Assembly (NCBI GenBank): GCA_963662945.1
Contig: OY759974.1
Coordinates: forward strand, 1,888,001 to 1,952,000
Source of the DNA: Arcobacteraceae bacterium
GTDB lineage: Bacteria; Campylobacterota; Campylobacteria; Campylobacterales; Arcobacteraceae
Reading direction: 5' to 3'
DNA: 64,000 nt
Positions 16,485-25,985 of the stretch are shown piece after piece. Position 1 is the first letter of the stretch. Each line of letters starts with the position of its first letter. Below the pieces are notes generated by a model. That model was not told the DNA's origin, did no database searches, and was given only the letters and a program-made list of their open reading frames with translations. Both the position numbers and the translations under genes were made by a program.

Positions 16485-19028
16485 ATGGGTATTAAGACAT
16501 TAAAGAATTATTTTCGTCTTTCGATGATAATTACAACATTTAGTTTATTTTTTATATTTTATATTTTTTCATCTTATATACATACTAATTTAACAATACA
16601 AGAAAATCAAAAAATATCAGAATCACTCTCAAAACAAGTTTTTAATTCTATGTACCAAGTTATGAGAAAAGGTTGGAGTAGAGAAGAATTACAAGCATTT
16701 ATTAGTGAAACAAAAAACTCATTTGAAAATAGTTCTTATGGTGTAGAAATCTATAGAGGTGAAAATGTTGAAAAACTTTTTGGTGTTATTAACCAATCTA
16801 CTATTACTCCAGATGTTCAAAAAGTTTTTGAGACAAAAGAGAAACATTTTATATCTACAGACAATACAACAAAAATCATCACTCCTATTATAGCAAAACA
16901 AGAGTGTATAGTATGTCATACAAATGTTCAAGAGGGCGATATTTTAGGTGCTGTAAAAGTTGAATATGATTTTAATGATATGATTATTCAAACAAGAGAA
17001 CAATACTTACTCTTTTCACTCATAATTTTACCAATAATGTTTATTATAGCGTTTGTAATTTCTCTTAATTTTTTAAAGAAAGTTAATTTTTCAATTGAAA
17101 ATTTTGGAGATAAAGTAAAAAGTATTAACACTGTTAAAGATTTTAAAAATATCGATATAGTCAATACAAAAGATAGTTTTCAAGAATTTGATAAAATTAT
17201 GAATGGTTTAAATTTATTAAGTGCAAAATTAAAAAATATAGCAGTTGATAAAGATATTTTAGAATTTGAGGTAAAACTTCTTGATAAAATGGTGATTACC
17301 TCTGACATTATTAAAGATTGGAAAGAATATATTAAAGATCTTCTCCATGAAATCAATATTGTTCTTCCTGTACACTGTTTAATTACTATATTTAAAACAG
17401 AAGATGAATTTTATGAAGTGGAGATATTTTGGCTCGGAAAACCAGAAGTGAATTTACAACATCATCTTGAAAATGTTGCAAAAGAGATGATTTATGAACA
17501 TCACAAGCAAGAGAAAGCTGAAATGGTTATTAACCACAATATTTCAAATGAGAATTTTTGTTTAAGAACTTTAGGTGAAGATGATATAGAACATGAAGCA
17601 AAATCTATTCTTTTAGATGCGCCAAAAATAGGTGGAATTGTAGGACTTGGAATTCAATCAAGAATGGAAAAAGACTCAATACATTCTATTGTAATAGATT
17701 CTATTTTAACTACACTTTTAAATCTTGTAGGTTCAATAAAAGCCATCAATAAATATACAGAAAACTTGGAATATTACGCTACAAGAGATCCTCTTACTGG
17801 ATTATTTTCTCAAAGAGTTTTTAGAGACTTATTAGAATACGAGGTAAAAAGAGCAGCTAGACATAAGTATCATTTTGGTGTTTTAGTAATAGATTGTGAC
17901 AATTTTAAGCCTATCAATGATACACATGGACACAGTTTTGGTGATGAGTTTTTAAAAGCTTTCGCAGATATTTTAGAAAATTCAAAAAGAGATGAAGATA
18001 TTTTATCACGTTATGGTGGTGATGAATTTACAATAATACTTCCAGAAAGTGATCACAATGAAACTTATACAGTAGCTAGAAGAATTTTAGAAAACGTAGA
18101 AAACTTTGAGCTAGCTGCACCTGATGGTTCTATGATAACAATGACTGTTTCAATTGGTATGGCGATTTTCCCAGAGCATTCAACGGAACCAAAAGAGTTA
18201 TTTAACATAGCAGACTCTATGATGTATAAAGCAAAATATGAAGGAAAAAATGCTGTTAAATTTCCAACAGATGATGAAATAGAAGAGATACATCAAGAGT
18301 TAGAAGATAACTCTATGATAGTTTTAGATGCTATTAAAAATGAAAAAATAGTACCACATTTTCAACCTATTATGAATGTAAAAACAGGAACAGTTGAAAT
18401 TAATGAATTACTTATGAGAATTGAATTAGATGGTGAAATGATAAGTGCTGGAAAGTTTATAGAAACAGCTGAGTCACTTGGAATTGTACACCAAATGGAT
18501 TATATTGTTATAGAAAAAGCATTTCAAAAAATTAAAGAAAGAAATTATGAAGGTATATTATTTATCAATCTTTCACCAAAAGCTTTAATGATAGGTGAGT
18601 TTATAAAAAAAGTTGTGAAATTAACAGTAACATATAATATTAATCGGGATAATATTGTTTTTGAGATCACTGAGCGGGAAACTGTAAAAAGTTTTACATT
18701 ACTAGAAAAATTTGTACAAAACTTAAAACTTGAAGGTTTTAGTTTTGCAATTGATGATTTTGGTAGTGGTTTTTCATCATTCCATTATATTAAAAGATTT
18801 CCAATTGATTATATAAAAATTGATGGAGATTTTATAGTAAATATTCATAAAGATAAAAAAGATTTAGCTTTCGTAAAATCTATAGTATCTTTAGCTCAAG
18901 AGTTAGGGGTAAAAACAGTTGCTGAATTTGTTGAAAATGAAGAAATATTAGAATTTTTACAACAAATTGATATAGATTATGCACAAGGATTTCATTTAGG
19001 AAAACCATCTATTGATTTTGTGACTTGA
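16485..19028 (+). CDS. Membrane GGDEF-EAL protein with a periplasmic c-type heme (CxxCH) sensor
   Basis: Two TMs flank ECIVCHT; RDPLTGL, RYGGDEF, ELLMRI, IDDFGSGFSS. Confidence 0.88.
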   Translation: MGIKTLKNYFRLSMIITTFSLFFIFYIFSSYIHTNLTIQENQKISESLSKQVFNSMYQVMRKGWSREELQAFISETKNSFENSSYGVEIYRGENVEKLFGVINQSTITPDVQKVFETKEKHFISTDNTTKIITPIIAKQECIVCHTNVQEGDILGAVKVEYDFNDMIIQTREQYLLFSLIILPIMFIIAFVISLNFLKKVNFSIENFGDKVKSINTVKDFKNIDIVNTKDSFQEFDKIMNGLNLLSAKLKNIAVDKDILEFEVKLLDKMVITSDIIKDWKEYIKDLLHEINIVLPVHCLITIFKTEDEFYEVEIFWLGKPEVNLQHHLENVAKEMIYEHHKQEKAEMVINHNISNENFCLRTLGEDDIEHEAKSILLDAPKIGGIVGLGIQSRMEKDSIHSIVIDSILTTLLNLVGSIKAINKYTENLEYYATRDPLTGLFSQRVFRDLLEYEVKRAARHKYHFGVLVIDCDNFKPINDTHGHSFGDEFLKAFADILENSKRDEDILSRYGGDEFTIILPESDHNETYTVARRILENVENFELAAPDGSMITMTVSIGMAIFPEHSTEPKELFNIADSMMYKAKYEGKNAVKFPTDDEIEEIHQELEDNSMIVLDAIKNEKIVPHFQPIMNVKTGTVEINELLMRIELDGEMISAGKFIETAESLGIVHQMDYIVIEKAFQKIKERNYEGILFINLSPKALMIGEFIKKVVKLTVTYNINRDNIVFEITERETVKSFTLLEKFVQNLKLEGFSFAIDDFGSGFSSFHYIKRFPIDYIKIDGDFIVNIHKDKKDLAFVKSIVSLAQELGVKTVAEFVENEEILEFLQQIDIDYAQGFHLGKPSIDFVT

Positions 19029-19102: not shown

Positions 19103-19447
19103 TTAAATTATTTCTACATCTTTTACATCAATGCCTGATAGTTTTTCCATTTTTTCTTCAACTAAATCTAAAAACTCTGCTCTGTTTTTTTCATCCATAT
19201 TATTAGCTAGCATCTCATTTATATATTTAATACCATTTGCATTGATTTTTTTTACACTGGCTAAATAATGAACAAAGGCAATAAGTTTTACATCATTTAT
19301 AGAATAAAGTTTTTTATTCTCTTGTTCTTCTTTTTTAGGTAATAAACCTTTTTCTTCATACATTTTAAGTGTTCGTATTTTTGCACTTAAAAGTTCTGCA
19401 ATAGAACTCAAAGGTAATATGTCTTTTTCATTGTCTAAAAGTGCCAA
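19103..19447 (-). CDS. MerR-family (HspR-like) transcriptional regulator
   Basis: LSSIAELLSAKIRTLKMYEEKGLL...KLYSINDV...INANGIK; TTG start with GAGGA RBS; TGaTATAAT at 19475-19483 on the minus strand. Confidence 0.85.
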   Translation of the reverse strand: MALLDNEKDILPLSSIAELLSAKIRTLKMYEEKGLLPKKEEQENKKLYSINDVKLIAFVHYLASVKKINANGIKYINEMLANNMDEKNRAEFLDLVEEKMEKLSGIDVKDVEII

Positions 19448-19522
19448 GTTGTTTTCCTCATATAGTAATGAGTAATTATATCAAAAAATTATTTATAACA
19501 AAGTTGATACAAAAATAAATAA

Positions 19523-19690
19523 TACATATAGTGTGTATATTTTAATACATACTATATGTATTAAAATATACATTATTATTACAATTTAATTACATTAAAA
19601 TAGTATTAATTAATAAGTATTTAAGTTTTATATGTTATAACTGTACATATATTTACATATTATATGTAAAAAATATACATAAAGGATGTA
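19523..19690. promoter_or_regulatory. Four TACATA-N3-TATGTA palindromic operator-like sites in the merR/ectA divergent promoter region
   Basis: 19523 TACATAtagTGTGTA, 19546 TACATActaTATGTA, 19654 TACATAttaTATGTA, 19676 TACATAaagGATGTA; extended -10 TGtTATAAC at 19633-19641. Confidence 0.75.
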
Positions 19691-19694
19691 AAAT

Positions 19695-20201
19695 ATGACA
19701 ATAAAAATGTTAAATCCAAAAAAGGAAAATGCAAAAGAAATCTTTACTTTAATAAAAGATACAAAAATTTTAGATCTCAATTCAGAATATTTGTATCTTC
19801 TTCAAACAACACATTTTAGTGATTATTGTTGTGTTGCGTTATTGGAAGATAAAGTAGTTGGGTTTGTATCAGGATATATTCATCCTCAACAAGCAGATGT
19901 TTATTTTGTATGGCAAGTTGGTGTTGATAGTGGTATGAGAGGACAAGGATTGGCATCTCAAATGATATTAAATATTTTAAATAGAGATAATTTAAAAAAT
20001 ATCAATTATGTGCATACAACAATAAGTCCAAGTAATAAAGCTTCCCAAAGAGTATTTGAAAAATTAGCAAAAAAGTTTAATGTTGATGTAGAAAAAGAGA
20101 TACTCTTTGAAATTAAAGATTTTTGTAATGGGCATGAAGAGGAAGTTCTATATACAATAGGACCAATAAAAAAGAAAAAGGAAAAACATGAGAATATTTG
20201 A
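19695..20201 (+). CDS. ectA: L-2,4-diaminobutyrate acetyltransferase
   Basis: LDLNSEYLYLL, FVWQVGVD, RGQGLA, TTISPSNKAS, HEEE; upstream of ectB. Confidence 0.95.
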   Translation: MTIKMLNPKKENAKEIFTLIKDTKILDLNSEYLYLLQTTHFSDYCCVALLEDKVVGFVSGYIHPQQADVYFVWQVGVDSGMRGQGLASQMILNILNRDNLKNINYVHTTISPSNKASQRVFEKLAKKFNVDVEKEILFEIKDFCNGHEEEVLYTIGPIKKKKEKHENI

Positions 20202-21468
20202 AAGTTTAGAATCAGAAGTAAGGGGATACATAAGAAGTTTCCCAACTATATTTACAAAAGCAAAAGGAGCGATCTTAACAGATGAACAAGATGTAGAGTA
20301 TATAGATTTTTTTGCTGGGGCTGGAACACTGAATTATGGTCATAACAACGATGCAATAAGTACAGCACTCATAGAGTATTTACAAAATGATGGGATAGTT
20401 CATGGTTTAGATATGGCTACAACTGCTAAAAAAGAGTTTTTACAAACATTTGAAAACTTGATTTTAAAACCAAGAAACTTAGAATATAAATTGCAATTTA
20501 CGGGACCTACAGGAACAAATGCTGTTGAAACTGCATTAAAGTTAGCACGACTTGTAAAAGGTAGAAGTAATGTTGTTGCATTTACTAATGGTTATCATGG
20601 ATTATCTCAAGGTTCACTTGCAGTTACAGGAAACAATGAATATAGAGATGAGAGTTATATTAGTAGATGTAATGCTACATTTATGCCATTTGATGGGTAT
20701 TTTGGAGATTTTAATACTTTAAAATATTTTAGAAAATTTTTAGATGATGGAAGCAGTGGTGTTGATATTCCAGCAGCTGTTATTGTTGAAACGATTCAAG
20801 GTGAAGGTGGTATCAATGTATCAAGTGCAAAATGGCTACAAGAGTTAGAATCTATTTGTAGAGAGTATGATATTTTACTTATTATAGATGATATTCAAGT
20901 AGGAAATGGTAGAACAGGTGAGTTTTTCTCTTTTGAGTTTGCTGGAATAAACCCTGATATGGTAACACTTTCTAAATCTATTGGTGGTGGGTTGCCAATG
21001 GCGCTATTACTTTTTAAACCAGATCTTGATCAATGGAAACCAGGAGAACATACTGGAACATTTAGAGGAAACAATCTTGCATTTGTTGCTTCAAAAGTGA
21101 GTTTGGAAAATTATTGGCAAAATGATGATCTATCAAATGCAGTATTTTACAAAGAAAAAATACTAAAAGAGATTTTAGAACAAATTGCTAAAAAACATAA
21201 AGATACTTATACAATTGAGGTGAGAGGAAGAGGTTTGGCATACGGCTTTGAGATTAAAGATGACAAAACAATAGCTGGAGAAATCTCAGAATATGCTTTT
21301 AAAGAAAACCTTATTATTGAAACTTGTGGGAGTGATAATCAAGTGGTAAAATTTTTACCACCTTTAGTGATTGATGAAGAGACTTTACGAGAAGGTTTAA
21401 AAAGATTTGAAACAGCCGTTGATAAATTATTTGCTAGTAAAAAAGAAAAATTAAGTGAGGAGTTTTAA
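20188..21468 (+). CDS. ectB: Diaminobutyrate-2-oxoglutarate transaminase
   Basis: ESEVRGYIRSFP, DFFAGAGTLNYGHN, GPTGTNAVE, DDIQVGNGRTG, PGEHTGTFRGNN. Confidence 0.97.
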   Translation: MRIFESLESEVRGYIRSFPTIFTKAKGAILTDEQDVEYIDFFAGAGTLNYGHNNDAISTALIEYLQNDGIVHGLDMATTAKKEFLQTFENLILKPRNLEYKLQFTGPTGTNAVETALKLARLVKGRSNVVAFTNGYHGLSQGSLAVTGNNEYRDESYISRCNATFMPFDGYFGDFNTLKYFRKFLDDGSSGVDIPAAVIVETIQGEGGINVSSAKWLQELESICREYDILLIIDDIQVGNGRTGEFFSFEFAGINPDMVTLSKSIGGGLPMALLLFKPDLDQWKPGEHTGTFRGNNLAFVASKVSLENYWQNDDLSNAVFYKEKILKEILEQIAKKHKDTYTIEVRGRGLAYGFEIKDDKTIAGEISEYAFKENLIIETCGSDNQVVKFLPPLVIDEETLREGLKRFETAVDKLFASKKEKLSEEF

Positions 21469-21469
21469 G

Positions 21470-21862
21470 ATGATAGTAAGAGATATAAAAGATATTATAG
21501 GAACACAAAAAGAGGTACATGCAGAGGAAGGACAATGGGTTAGTCGAAGAATGTTGTTAAAAGATGATGGAATGGGATTTTCATTTCATGAAACTATCAT
21601 AAAAGCAGGTACTAAAACACATATACATTATCAAAATCATTTGGAAGCTGTATATTGTGTAGGAGGAGATGGAAAGATAGAAGATCTAAAAACAGGCGAA
21701 GTACATAAAATTTATGATGGTGTTATGTATGCTTTAAATAATCATGATGACCATAATTTATATGGTGGAAGTGTTGATATGAGACTTATATGTGTTTTTA
21801 ATCCTCCAATAAAAGGAACAGAGAACCATGATGAAAATGGCGTATATCCATTAGAGGAGTAG
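21470..21862 (+). CDS. ectC: Ectoine synthase
   Basis: WVSRRMLLKDDGMGFSFHET, HYQNHLEAVYC, CVFNPP...HDENGVY; ATG at 21470 after GAGGAG. Confidence 0.97.
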   Translation: MIVRDIKDIIGTQKEVHAEEGQWVSRRMLLKDDGMGFSFHETIIKAGTKTHIHYQNHLEAVYCVGGDGKIEDLKTGEVHKIYDGVMYALNNHDDHNLYGGSVDMRLICVFNPPIKGTENHDENGVYPLEE

Positions 21863-22170: not shown

Positions 22171-22821
22171 ATGAGACTATTAGCTTACAATATTAATAAT
22201 GAAATTATTAAAAAACTTGAAAGTGATGAATATTATATAGTAGATAGAACAGAAGACTTAGATGATACTTTGTATCATTTACAAGTACGATTTTATAATA
22301 TGGTTATACTTTATGAAGATGATTTAAAAAACTGTTTAACACTCTTACAGTCAAGTGATAATATGAATACAGCGTTTATAATACTGACAAATAAAGACGA
22401 TAAAAAATTTCATCTTAAATGTTTTAAAAATGGTGCATTATGTGTTATTAATACTCCTTATGATGATGAGTTATTATGGGCAAAAATAGAATCAATTCAT
22501 AGAGAAAATTTTGTAAAAAAGATTTATCATGAAAATTATTTTGGGATCGATAAAGAGCAAAAAGAGATAGTTGATTATGAGAATAATGAGTTAGAAATTA
22601 GAGGAAAAGCATATGACATATTGGTGTATTTATATCAAAATAGATTTAGACCACCAATATCAAAAGATGAGATGATTTATGCACTTTGGGATGACCCTGA
22701 AATGGTATGTCAAAATGTTATAGAAGTAAATATCAATCAAATTAGAAGTAAATTAAAAAAAAGATTTCAAATTGATATGATTGATACTGTTAGAAATAGA
22801 GGTTATAAATTAAAACACTAA
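22171..22821 (+). CDS. Atypical OmpR-family response regulator (HsrA/HP1043-like, degenerate receiver)
   Basis: Winged-helix C-terminus GKAYDILVYL...LWDDPEMVCQNVIEVNINQIRSKL...IDTVRNRGY; receiver lacks the acidic pocket, phospho-Asp and conserved Lys. Confidence 0.8.
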   Translation: MRLLAYNINNEIIKKLESDEYYIVDRTEDLDDTLYHLQVRFYNMVILYEDDLKNCLTLLQSSDNMNTAFIILTNKDDKKFHLKCFKNGALCVINTPYDDELLWAKIESIHRENFVKKIYHENYFGIDKEQKEIVDYENNELEIRGKAYDILVYLYQNRFRPPISKDEMIYALWDDPEMVCQNVIEVNINQIRSKLKKRFQIDMIDTVRNRGYKLKH

Positions 22822-22836
22822 TCAAAGGGGAAATAT

Positions 22837-23718
22837 ATGGAAGATTTGTATCCATCAAGAGGTCTAGAAGAAAAGATTATCAAACGAATTGATAAAACAG
22901 TCTATAGTAATAAAAAATTTGGACAACAAAGTTTAGATAATATTCAAAGAGAACAATATGATGAAAATGGTTTTATAGTAATACCAAATTTATTTAGTGC
23001 TGATGAGGTGCAAGAGTTATTAGAAGATATAGAGATAATGGCTTCAAATGAAGAATTACGTCAAAATGAAGAGTTCATAACAGAACCAAATGATGATAGT
23101 TTACGAACAATTTTTAACCAACATATTTTTAGTAGTGCTTTTGAAAAAATTACCAAAGATGCCAGAATATTAGATAAAGTGCAACAACTTTTGGGTGGAG
23201 ATGTTTATATGCATCATAGTCGTATAAATATAAAACCTGCTTATGTGGGAAAATCTTTCCCTTGGCATAGTGATTTTGAAACTTGGCATAGTGAAGATGG
23301 ACTTCCTAGATGTAGATGTTTAACTGCTTGGATTATGTTAACAGATAATACACATTTTAATGGACCTCTATATTTAATACCAGGAAGTCATAAACATTAT
23401 GTTTCTTGCAAGGGAATTACTCCTAGTAATAACTATAAAAATTCATTAAAAAAACAAGAATATGGTGTACCTAGTATTGATGCAGTAAGATATTTATCAG
23501 AAGAGAAAGAGATAGAAGCAGCACTAGGAAAAGCTGGGACATTGGTACTTCATGATGGGAATGTAATGCATGGAAGTCCAGATAATATTTCGCCAATCTC
23601 TAGAACAAATGCTTTTTTTGTTTATAACAGTATTTATAATAAACCATTAAAGCCTTTTGCTACTTCTGAAAAACGTGCAGATTTTTTATGCTTGAATGAT
23701 TATACACCTATTAAGTAG
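22837..23718 (+). CDS. ectD: Ectoine hydroxylase
   Basis: EctD signature FPWHSDFETWHSEDGLP; DLYPSR; MHGS..NISP..R. Confidence 0.95.
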   Translation: MEDLYPSRGLEEKIIKRIDKTVYSNKKFGQQSLDNIQREQYDENGFIVIPNLFSADEVQELLEDIEIMASNEELRQNEEFITEPNDDSLRTIFNQHIFSSAFEKITKDARILDKVQQLLGGDVYMHHSRINIKPAYVGKSFPWHSDFETWHSEDGLPRCRCLTAWIMLTDNTHFNGPLYLIPGSHKHYVSCKGITPSNNYKNSLKKQEYGVPSIDAVRYLSEEKEIEAALGKAGTLVLHDGNVMHGSPDNISPISRTNAFFVYNSIYNKPLKPFATSEKRADFLCLNDYTPIK

Positions 23719-23740: not shown

Positions 23741-25117
23741 ATGAAAGTATGTAAATTTGGTGGAAGCTCTGTAAAAGATGCAGTACAAATTAAAAAAGTT
23801 ATTAGAATATTACAAAGTGATAAAATGAGAAAAGTTGTTGTAGTTTCTGCACCAGGAAGAGATGAAATCTATGATCAAAAAATTACAGACCATCTTTTAA
23901 ATTTTGCAACAGAAGGAAAACATTTCTTTGAACAAAAGTTAGAGATAGATGCGCAACAAAGTTTCGAAGCAATCATTCATAAATATGAAAAATTGTGTTT
24001 AGATTTAGAAATAGATGTGAACTCTATACTTGAAGCACTTAAAAAAGATTTGACAGACATAGTATTTGAAGGTGATAAAAAAATCGCATTTTGTTTATCA
24101 CGAGGAGAACATCATAATGCAAGAATAATCGAATCATTTATGAAAAAATCAAATATAGATGTGCAGTTGATGTTACCAGAAGAGTTTGGTTTTATTTTAA
24201 GTGATAACTTTACAGATGGAAAAGTTTTAGAAAAAACACATCAAAATATTGAAAAATATTTTGATATGAATCAAGATACACTCTATTTAGTACCAGGATT
24301 CTATGGCATAACAAAAAATAGTGAAATTGCTGTAATGAGCCGTGGAGGAAGTGATTTAACAGGTGGTGAATTAGCGTATGCACTTGATGCAGATATTTAT
24401 GAAAATTGGACAGATACAAATGGTGTATATGAAGTTGATCCAAGAGTTATAGAAGATGCCAATGTTATACCACGACTTACATTTAAAGAGTTACGGCTTT
24501 TAAGTTCAAAAGGGTTCAATGTATTTCATTTTGATGCCATGTTAAATTGTAAAAAAAGTAAAATTCCTATCAATATACGAAATACAAATAATCCATCTCA
24601 TGAAGGTACTTTGATTTTAAGTGAACGAGTTCCGATGGAAGATATTGTGGGGATTGCACGACTTGATAATATGGCTTCAATACATATTCAAAAAGATATG
24701 TTATCTGAAGAGATAGGTTTTATGGCAGAACTTCTAAAAGTATTTAGTGAGTTTGGCATAAATACTTATCATTATCCAACAGATAAAGATGATATAGCAA
24801 TATTGGTTGACCAAGAGTGTTTAAAAGGTAATATTAATAATTTGAGAAGACAAATTGAAAAAAGACTACAAACAGACAATATTACGATTACTTACAATTT
24901 ATCTATTATTACAATTGTTGGGATTGGATTAAAAGAGAATAGTTTTGTGATAGTTGATGCTATTTGGGCTTTAAAAGAAAATAATATCTCTTTTGAACTT
25001 TTTGATATGAGTCCATCAAAGATATCTTTTCATATAGGTATTTCCCAAAATATTGCCGATGCTGCATTACAAACACTTTATAATAATCTTTTACAAAATA
25101 AAGAGGAGGGGATTTAA
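23741..25117 (+). CDS. ask: Aspartate kinase associated with the ectoine cluster
   Basis: KFGGSSV, VVVVSAPG, SRGGSDLTG, YENWTD, DPR; ACT-like C-terminus. Confidence 0.9.
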   Translation: MKVCKFGGSSVKDAVQIKKVIRILQSDKMRKVVVVSAPGRDEIYDQKITDHLLNFATEGKHFFEQKLEIDAQQSFEAIIHKYEKLCLDLEIDVNSILEALKKDLTDIVFEGDKKIAFCLSRGEHHNARIIESFMKKSNIDVQLMLPEEFGFILSDNFTDGKVLEKTHQNIEKYFDMNQDTLYLVPGFYGITKNSEIAVMSRGGSDLTGGELAYALDADIYENWTDTNGVYEVDPRVIEDANVIPRLTFKELRLLSSKGFNVFHFDAMLNCKKSKIPINIRNTNNPSHEGTLILSERVPMEDIVGIARLDNMASIHIQKDMLSEEIGFMAELLKVFSEFGINTYHYPTDKDDIAILVDQECLKGNINNLRRQIEKRLQTDNITITYNLSIITIVGIGLKENSFVIVDAIWALKENNISFELFDMSPSKISFHIGISQNIADAALQTLYNNLLQNKEEGI

Positions 25118-25118
25118 A

Positions 25119-25985
25119 ATGGTTAAAATTTTTTTTATTGTTACATTAATTTTAGCAAGTTTTGGATTTGCAACGACAGATCCTCATAAAATAGAAAAGA
25201 AAATTACTAGTTTGGAAAAACCTTTATATAACCCTTTTGTGGAAAATTATATATTAAATGAATTAAAAACTCTTAGAGATGAAAACAGGGATTTAAAAAT
25301 TGACTTACATGAAACTATGGCAAAAAAAGAAGTAGATATCTCAAATAATGCTATAAACTATGCAACTTCTACAATTAATAATATGTTTTATATTTTAGCA
25401 GCAGCCACATCTTTACTTGTAATTGTTGGTTGGACTTCAATACGAGATATGAATGCAAAAATTAAAAATATAGTTGATGAAAAGATATCAAAGGTAATTA
25501 ACGATTATGAAAAAAGAATGGAAACGGTAGAGGAAGATTTAAAACAAAGAAGTAAACAAGTGATTCAAAATCAAAAAGATATTGAGAAAACAAATACAAT
25601 ACACTCTTTATGGATGAGAGCAAGTTCTGAAACAACGTTGAGTGGAAAAGTTGATGTCTACAATGAAATTTTAGAACACAGACCAGATGATGTAGAAGCT
25701 ATTATATATAAAGCTGATGCTGTATTAGATTTAGGGGAAGCAAATTGGGCTTTAAACCTTACAAATCAAGCGTTACAAATAGATAATAATTATGCAGATG
25801 CTTTTTATCAAAGAGCTAAAGTATATAGTGTATTAGGATTTATTGAAAATGCAATTGAGGATTTAGAAAAAGCAGTTTCATTAAATGAACAATATATCAG
25901 TGAAATAGAAAATGAAGAAGAATTTAAAGTATTAATACAAGAAGAAAAAGTTCAACAATTACTCTCTAGACTCACTAATGTTTAA
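25119..25985 (+). CDS. Signal peptide / TM / coiled-coil / TPR protein
   Basis: ATG at 25119 after GAGGAGG; N-terminal signal; TM (FYILAAATSLLVIVGW); C-terminal TPR motifs (ADAFYQRAKVYS...AIEDLEKA). Confidence 0.75.
   Translation: MVKIFFIVTLILASFGFATTDPHKIEKKITSLEKPLYNPFVENYILNELKTLRDENRDLKIDLHETMAKKEVDISNNAINYATSTINNMFYILAAATSLLVIVGWTSIRDMNAKIKNIVDEKISKVINDYEKRMETVEEDLKQRSKQVIQNQKDIEKTNTIHSLWMRASSETTLSGKVDVYNEILEHRPDDVEAIIYKADAVLDLGEANWALNLTNQALQIDNNYADAFYQRAKVYSVLGFIENAIEDLEKAVSLNEQYISEIENEEEFKVLIQEEKVQQLLSRLTNV

Follow-up and report, generated by a model that had tools for sequence, protein, structure and literature searches.

What controls ectoine synthesis in an Arcobacteraceae bacterium (assembly GCA_963662945.1, contig OY759974.1) whose ectoine genes stand divergently beside a small gene of the MerR family? 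The stretch of that contig analysed here, 64,000 nucleotides long and hereafter called the window, holds the gene of a 114-amino-acid MerR-type protein (the regulator gene) and ectA on the two sides of a 247-bp spacer (19448-19694). A sequence-only reading of this DNA had proposed that the protein is an HspR-like paralogue acting as an ectoine-operon repressor through four copies of a 15-bp palindrome in the spacer. The cis-element and its link to the regulator gene are well supported by the genome comparisons below, and we infer binding by the protein, repression and a response to an osmotic signal.

Phased palindromes in the spacer upstream of ectA

By searching the window for TACATANNNTATGTA with at most one mismatch, we found exactly four matches, all of them within the spacer, while dinucleotide shuffles of the window gave a mean of 0.79 matches and none of 100 shuffles reached four. 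The sequence and the pattern search confirm the four palindromes (starting at 19523, 19546, 19654 and 19676) with the mismatches assigned to them, their spacings of 23 and 22 bp within pairs and the perfect 18-nt inverted repeat (19534-19551 and 19555-19572); the two perfect sites are 108 bp apart from start to start, and 131 bp separate the starts of 19523 and 19654. Site 19654 has the top score in the whole 2.497-Mb genome with a position weight matrix built from orthologous sites. The predicted extended -10 element of ectA, TGTTATAAC at 19633-19641, and the AAGGA ribosome-binding site (RBS) at 19681-19685 within the last palindrome are also as claimed. Site 19546 sits 98 nt from the regulator start codon, and the same spacing is seen in orthologous loci. 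An additional TACATA half-site at 19644-19649 had been missed by the sequence-only reading.

Scanning the whole genome supported the arrangement of the motif and not its abundance. The ect spacer is the sole place in the genome where sites have a partner 21-23 bp away, and single sites (at most one mismatch) number 20 versus 25 for a reversed control pattern. The signal therefore lies in clustering and phase, not in single sites, and we rejected genome-wide enrichment of single sites as a test. Four lone intergenic high scorers (C1:1327803, C1:2439205, C1:453971 and C1:474926) were not counted as targets because none has a phased partner; the genes near them are, by translation, methyltransferase-like, ferritin-like, peroxiredoxin-like, a sigma-54 activator, amtB and glnA-like. 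Since phased sites stand only in the ect spacer, ect is the one evident putative target in this genome. No OpuAC, BCCT or PutA homologue was found in it, so a multi-locus regulon is not demonstrable within this genome.

The four sites are likely, though not certainly, the product of a tandem duplication of a two-site promoter/operator module of ~108 bp. Positions 19534-19565 and 19642-19673 are 75% alike and are followed by identical 11-mers (at 19563 and 19670), position 19568, 22 bp from 19546, is a decayed site, and the spacer halves (19466-19694) align at 79%, a value that AT-richness and the shared sites inflate, which weakens the duplication reading. The merR-proximal set is additional to the ectA-proximal set only in the window and in its closest relatives (loci L003 and L006). 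DNA looping between the two operator pairs, as had been suggested, is thus possible and has no comparative support.

The palindrome and its phase are conserved in relatives

Relatives of the protein were collected by a scan of one genome per species, which yielded 108, and the best 80 of these 108 were kept (the 80 loci). Of 64 sites with at most one mismatch in these loci, 59 lie in 30.3 kb of intergenic DNA flanking the regulator gene or putative target genes (ectA, opuAA/opuAC, BCCT, putA, the cytochrome c gene and orf100), two in the remaining 45.7 kb of intergenic sequence and three in 727 kb of coding DNA, compared with 0-4, 0-4 and 0-11 in the same three classes for five control palindromes of like composition. 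Conserved flanks extend the 15-mer to the 17-bp element T-TACATA-N3-TATGTA-A, and all sites used to train the position weight matrix have C at position 3 and G at position 13. Distances between neighbouring sites (n=62) were 22 bp in 50 cases, 21 bp in 2 and 44 bp in 3, and the sites form 34 arrays of two and 9 of three.

These sequence comparisons indicate that the sites follow the target gene and not the regulator gene, that is, that they would be acted on in trans. Sites stand directly 5' of ectA in L012, L015 and L053 though the regulator gene is 1.8-4.7 kb away, and where the regulator and target genes are co-directional, the sites stand between the regulator gene and ectA or BCCT, with no site found upstream of the regulator gene. 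The latter arrangement speaks against the proposed autoregulation as a conserved feature. In the window, the regulator's predicted -10 element (TGATATAAT) lies 40-85 bp from the merR-proximal sites, and autoregulation by occlusion is therefore not evident there either.

The arrays also have a recurrent position with respect to predicted promoters. Of 95 arrays, 29 are preceded at a distance of 0-4 nt (mostly 2-3) by the end of a TG.TAWWW element, versus 68 of 1600 (4.25%) random intergenic positions, and in many orthologous spacers the array occupies the leader from there to the RBS. TGTTATAWW is the type of extended -10 element usual in Campylobacterota.

Compatible-solute genes recur beside the regulator gene

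Open reading frames were called in the 80 loci and clustered, and cluster representatives were scanned against family models. The recurrent neighbours include a ProV/ProW/ProX-type betaine ATP-binding-cassette importer (ProX model 392.6 bits, cut-off 215), PutP (694.6 bits, cut-off 515.5) with PutA, a BCCT transporter, ProB, ProC and ProA, and also a KamA-family radical S-adenosylmethionine aminomutase and a small cytochrome c with a tetratricopeptide-repeat (TPR) protein. Counted descriptively, ect, opuA-type, BCCT, putA/putP or proBAC genes lie at most two genes from the regulator gene in 58 of the 80 loci and anywhere in the locus in 66; adding the cytochrome c/TPR pair, the KamA-type gene and orf100 brings this to 71, and 4 of the other 9 loci lack upstream DNA because the contig ends. 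ectA is within the fetched DNA of 21 loci.

Among regulator/ect loci, the layout is divergent in the window, co-directional with the regulator gene first in L071, L076, L081 and L082, and with the regulator gene last in L064, and a BCCT or opuA operon separates the two in L012, L015 and L053. Such varied layouts are expected from a functional link rather than from frozen synteny. As the relatives carry the protein together with the operator before proVWX/opuA-type, BCCT, putP-putA, proBAC and KamA-type genes, the family appears to regulate compatible-solute genes of Campylobacterota in general. Because the same pair also accompanies cytochrome c/TPR genes, and occurs with and without ect, the term ectoine-operon repressor is too narrow: the repressor part agrees with the array's position after the extended -10 element, and the restriction to ectoine does not hold.

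The KamA-family aminomutase adjoins the regulator gene, with a site upstream, in L009, L043, L044 and L129 (the last from genome G276). It scores 289 bits on its subfamily model, under the cut-offs for lysine, arginine and glutamate 2,3-aminomutase, and by its sequence might be an enzyme that makes a beta-amino-acid compatible solute.

Regulator and motif occur together across the phylum

To extend the comparison beyond the neighbours of the regulator gene, we used a phylum sample of 400 Campylobacterota genomes. EctC is encoded in 21 of them (16 of 23 in the window's family), whereas a passage of PMC11800652 names two Sulfurovum species as the only Campylobacterota known to encode ectoine synthesis. 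The regulator is present in 23 genomes (15 of 23 in the window's family, 1 of 118 in family f2 and 0 of 158 in family f3). Eighteen genomes have both, three have ectC only (G177, G130 and G344) and five have the regulator only, and among these five it stands beside opuA (G075, G214), putP-putA (G187) or the KamA-type gene (G276).

The ect loci of 20 of the 21 genomes were fetched (G378 was left out). Sites of at least 9 bits are found upstream of ectA in 16 of the 17 loci from regulator-positive genomes, and the 17th (G380) ends 79 bp upstream; no such site was found in any of the three regulator-negative ect loci, of 7.5-11.4 kb each. The motif is thus kept upstream of orthologous ectA genes, as the proposed role would lead one to expect. 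A relaxed protein search in G177, G130, G344 and G334 returned a distant HspR-like match or none. Six genomes (G324, G273, G375, G352, G165 and G163) keep the ectA sites with the regulator gene elsewhere in the genome. The remote regulator gene stands beside BCCT or opuA with sites in five of six genomes, L136 of G163 being without them; it adjoins BCCT in G273, G375 and G352, and opuA in G380 and G165, with sites present.

A two-site pattern (22-bp phase, at most three mismatches in 24 specified bases) was found in 12 of the 400 genomes, namely in 11 of the 23 regulator-positive versus 1 of the 377 regulator-negative genomes, which bears out the expected co-occurrence of the MerR orthologue with the motif. 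All 11 regulator-positive matches fall at the ect and osmolyte loci listed above, and a reversed two-site control pattern was found in 2 of 401 genomes. The single regulator-negative match (G334) was read as chance, since it is a larger palindrome at the 3' terminus of an unrelated gene whose surroundings contain no osmolyte gene.

A compact protein clade related to HspR

The 114-amino-acid protein belongs to the MerR family (Pfam PF13411 MerR_1, 31.8 bits, cut-off 21.6, residues 14-74), and MarR is absent from its Pfam matches at E up to 0.01. Its top-scoring named family is HspR (NCBIfam NF047375), with 38.6 bits against a cut-off of 105; TnrA scores 16.6 bits (cut-off 140), and models of classical MerR-type activators 18-26 bits (cut-offs 117-175). 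The description as an HspR-like paralogue is therefore borne out, and identity as HspR was rejected on this score and because a true hspR lies elsewhere in the genome. That second MerR-like gene scores 113.5 bits on the HspR model and is located directly downstream of a DnaJ/CbpA-like gene, the arrangement found in Helicobacter and Campylobacter; the presence of this separate HspR makes the ect-linked protein a distinct HspR relative.

Orthologues in the 80 loci are 71-93% identical to the window protein, and their records are titled Arcobacteraceae, Halarcobacter, Poseidonibacter, Malaciobacter, Sulfurovum, Sulfurimonadaceae, Sulfuricurvum, Sulfurospirillum and a Helicobacteraceae metagenome-assembled genome. 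Among 1.84 billion cluster representatives just 18 reach E <=1e-10, and the next-nearest proteins, at 29-38% identity, score best on HspR, yet under its cut-off. By sequence, the clade is compact, well separated, closest to HspR and so far unnamed, and source annotations call its members merely 'MerR family transcriptional regulator'. The identity of 71-93% across families also prompted the idea of a core housekeeping gene of the phylum, which we rejected given its presence in just 23 of 400 genomes.

An AlphaFold2 model (pLDDT 82.8) predicts a winged helix-turn-helix, that is, a helix-turn-helix and a wing followed by helices, with a C-terminal helix of 26 residues (86-111) and then a disordered acidic end. 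Foldseek matches of the model are MerR-family chains throughout, the full-length fold matches being PbrR, CadR, NmlR and CueR. The DNA-binding part superposes best on GlnR-DNA complexes (7tea, rmsd (root-mean-square deviation) 1.6 A over 75 columns), and among solved structures the top sequence match is likewise GlnR (4r4e, E 1.1e-4). NCBIfam scoring recognised no metal- or ligand-binding residues or domain in the protein. MerR-family proteins form homodimers by an antiparallel C-terminal coiled coil; a two-copy complex prediction scored 0.35 against a mark of 0.42 and counts neither way.

The regulator gene starts with TTG (19445-19447), with GAGG 5' of it. Most of the closer orthologues also start with TTG (a few with GTG) and the more distant ones with ATG; retention of a weak start codon over such distance suggests low, tuned synthesis of the regulator.

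Probable repression from phased arrays and its alternatives

We consider it probable that the MerR-type protein binds the arrays cooperatively and represses ect and other osmolyte genes, with relief at high osmolarity. Dimers of the 114-amino-acid protein would bind the 17-bp element, and cooperative binding of neighbouring dimers is proposed because arrays of two or three sites keep a strict centre-to-centre phase of 22 bp, which is two helical turns and places them on the same face of the DNA. Since the ectA array runs from just after the extended -10 element to the RBS, occupied operators would block RNA polymerase; an array after the -10 element speaks for promoter occlusion, i.e. repression. 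The protein would thus hold down ectABC-orf100-RR-ectD-ask (RR, the gene of an OmpR-type response regulator) and release it at high osmolarity. For the sensing of the signal, the simplest guess is DNA binding that is itself sensitive to ionic strength or potassium glutamate, or control by a partner protein via the acidic tail conserved at the C terminus.

Several points weigh against this reading. The classical mode of MerR-family proteins is activation from a site between -35 and -10, and the protein has no recognisable sensor domain. The repressor reading depends on predicted -10 elements, which only 29 of 95 arrays have next to them, and the promoters were predicted in DNA that is very rich in A and T. 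putA, a gene of proline breakdown, fits poorly among the putative targets with a simple logic of making more osmolyte. The weight matrix was trained on sites chosen with the pattern of the sequence-only reading, and its scores lean to that pattern; the gene groups behind the neighbour and site-class counts were set after the neighbours had been viewed, which makes these counts a description and not a test. Single sites are not enriched genome-wide in this genome or in five other regulator-positive genomes (their counts also equal the reversed-pattern control in five regulator-negative genomes). Just three ect-positive, regulator-negative genomes serve as negative controls, and related genomes are not independent, with the result that the co-occurrence counts overstate the support.

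A bolder form of this model, which we regard as rather unlikely, is that the regulator is the osmoadaptation master switch of free-living Campylobacterota and is itself the osmosensor. Dimer arrays on the 22-bp-phased operators would disassemble as cytoplasmic ionic strength rises, requiring neither ligand nor kinase, and the regulator gene and its operators would accompany whichever set of compatible-solute genes a lineage acquired. This would explain the high identity across families despite the patchy distribution in the phylum (71-93% and 23 of 400 genomes).

The main competitor to repression is that the same protein acts at the same sites as an activator, or as a dual regulator, and switches osmolyte genes on at high osmolarity, a reading to which we give a distinctly small chance. 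MerR, CueR, SoxR and BmrR are activators, and in many divergent loci the nearest site is ~97-125 nt before the regulator start codon. This places it upstream of the predicted core promoter of the regulator gene, where activation is more typically exerted than occlusion. However, the classical mode needs the dyad within a 19-20-bp spacer between -35 and -10, a geometry not found here with the predicted promoters, whose arrays start after TGTTATAWW and fill the leader to the RBS, and the closest named relatives, HspR and GlnR, are repressors.

Alternatively, the sites could belong to another binder, either the OmpR-type protein encoded at 22171-22821, which had already been named as a candidate, or an unlinked factor, with the MerR-family gene a merely co-regulated neighbour. 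The TACATA direct repeats 10 bp apart (19644 and 19654) have a spacing that OmpR-type proteins can use, and 16 of the 80 loci have the response-regulator gene (gene cluster c7) within the operon. Its homologue is missing, however, from the fetched DNA of 14 of the 16 ect loci with the motif and likewise from the loci with opuA, BCCT or putA, while G177 has a 34%-identical homologue beside ectA, yet neither the motif nor the MerR-type regulator. The element is moreover an inverted repeat, no second regulator gene is repeatedly found near the sites across the 80 loci, and the two-site pattern tracks the MerR-family gene in the 400 genomes. The motif occurs without the response regulator, no other regulator recurs and a palindrome of ~17 bp suits a dimer of the MerR type; the MerR-type protein is thus the most parsimonious choice of binder, and we judge a different one improbable.

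It is very improbable that the palindromes act in the transcript as hairpins of the 5' leader, the last one over the RBS: the ectA-proximal sites do lie 3' of the predicted -10 element and the last contains AAGGA, but a stem of six pairs, rich in A and U, is weak, a strict phase of 22 bp has no obvious meaning in RNA, genomes that lack the regulator gene lack the elements too, and the half-site sequence itself is conserved (C3 and G13), the last point being weakened by the pattern-selected training set.

Relation to known regulators

HspR, the heat-shock repressor of Campylobacterota and Actinobacteria and the top-scoring named family for this protein and for its nearest outgroup proteins, is likewise a small MerR-type repressor that has no ligand-binding domain and binds inverted repeats. 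In Helicobacter pylori, several neighbouring HspR sites are bound cooperatively. The two differ in genomic context, chaperone genes (cbpA/dnaJ) for HspR versus osmolyte genes in 58 of 80 loci here, and in the operator, the HAIR element CTTGAGT-N7-ACTCAAG (the consensus quoted in the sequence-only reading) being different from T-TACATA-N3-TATGTA-A. GlnR and TnrA, the nitrogen regulators of Firmicutes, resemble the protein in small size, in a 17-bp palindromic site and in the superposition of the DNA-binding domain; in these regulators a partner protein controls DNA binding by way of a C-terminal tail, and GlnR uses two adjacent operators. In contrast, their half-site sequence and spacing differ, no nitrogen-assimilation genes were found beside the regulator gene in the loci compared, and its predicted C-terminal helix is longer. 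The classical MerR activators (MerR, CueR, SoxR and NmlR) share the MerR_1 domain and a palindromic operator of ~17 bp, but their operator is inside an overlong -35/-10 spacer, while here it follows the predicted -10 element in phased arrays.

Known ectoine repressors belong to the MarR family. The putative targets found here span a range similar to that of Vibrio CosR and methylotroph EctR1, which is a functional analogy only, as these two are MarR-type and not MerR-type winged helix-turn-helix proteins, with a different operator and in a different phylum. According to a passage of bioRxiv 10.1101/845297, CosR represses compatible-solute biosynthesis and transporter systems. Full-text literature searches (supplements being outside their scope) found no regulator of compatible-solute genes in Campylobacterota; in passages of the ectoine review PMC5924519, 'MerR' occurs only as part of an author's name, and passages of PMC11800652 and PMC10336517 contain no description of such a regulator. 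The regulation of these genes in Campylobacterota thus appears to be undescribed.

The analysis yields a candidate protein, a 17-bp operator with a fixed 22-bp phase and a predicted target set, and ect clusters that have neither the regulator nor the motif provide natural negative controls. If the proposed role is true, an osmotic-stress branch would be added to the HspR/GlnR-like group of sensor-less MerR proteins, and the spacer would represent a compact salt-responsive promoter/operator module.

The ect cluster and neighbouring genes

The genes downstream of the spacer form an ectoine biosynthetic cluster, with EctA, EctB and EctC above their cut-offs and encoded in the same direction, and with an aspartate kinase (Table 1).

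Table 1 Features of the window, with the true hspR of the same genome. Positions are those of the window unless another contig or locus is given; bits refer to family models for genes and to the operator matrix for sites.
Feature	Position	Strand	Basis or remark
MerR-family regulator gene (HspR-like, not HspR), 114 aa	19103..19447	-	Open reading frame listing; Pfam, NCBIfam, AlphaFold2
Predicted extended -10 of regulator gene, TGATATAAT	19475..19483	-	ATTATA(C) at same place in orthologous spacers
Operator-like palindrome, 1 mismatch, merR-proximal	19523..19537	.	Pattern search; 14.3 bits
Perfect operator-like palindrome	19546..19560	.	15.9 bits; centre of perfect 39-bp palindrome 19534-19572
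Predicted ectA extended -10, TGTTATAAC	19633..19641	+	Read from sequence; TGTTATAWW precedes first operator in many orthologous loci
Extra TACATA half-site	19644..19649	.	2 nt 3' of -10, over predicted transcription start
Perfect operator-like site, ectA-proximal	19654..19668	.	23.7 bits, the matrix maximum
Operator-like site, 1 mismatch	19676..19690	.	18.5 bits; 22 bp after 19654 site; overlaps ectA RBS
ectA (diaminobutyrate acetyltransferase)	19695..20201	+	TIGR02406 175.5 bits, cut-off 120.6
ectB	20188..21468	+	TIGR02407 645.7 bits, cut-off 552.2
ectC (ectoine synthase)	21455..21862	+	PF06339 193.9 bits; EctC model 197.2, cut-off 128
orf100, 100 aa	21865..22167	+	Kept within ect clusters; also adjoins regulator gene without ect
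OmpR-type winged-helix protein, 216 aa, degenerate receiver domain	22171..22821	+	Trans_reg_C 55.2 bits
ectD-like ectoine hydroxylase	22837..23718	+	TIGR02408 297.4 bits, under cut-off 336.5; PhyH 127.6
Aspartate kinase attached to ect cluster	23741..25117	+	Pfam/NCBIfam
TPR protein accompanying ect clusters and regulator	25053..25985	+	Pfam; locus comparison
True hspR	G000:C1 ~560.7 kb (L002:1375-2641)	-	Directly downstream of 299-aa DnaJ/CbpA-like gene

Besides ectA, the regulator gene is flanked in the window by a GGDEF-EAL gene (16485-19028, 847 amino acids) that is convergent with it; this neighbour is retained in L003, L011 and L012 (88-92% identity) and not in more distant loci. The OmpR-type protein scores 16.9 bits on Response_reg, under the cut-off of 30.2. 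A single weak match to the operator matrix at the ectD-ask junction (23703-23717, 7.3 bits) has no partner site and is probably due to chance.

Located between ectC and ectD, orf100 and the OmpR-type gene are both kept in many ect clusters of the window's family and have 14 and 16 members, respectively, among the 80 loci. orf100 gave no Pfam or NCBIfam match and no usable match in a protein atlas. Homologues of orf100 adjoin the MerR-type gene, with operator pairs upstream, in loci that have no ect genes (L032, L033 and L039), and from this arrangement orf100 may be a member of the same regulon or a partner of the regulator. The TPR protein of ~300 amino acids, which has hydrophobic N-terminal and central stretches and is encoded 3' of the aspartate kinase gene at the end of the ect cluster, also adjoins the regulator gene in loci without ect (gene cluster c10; L105-L108), often together with a 107-amino-acid cytochrome c.

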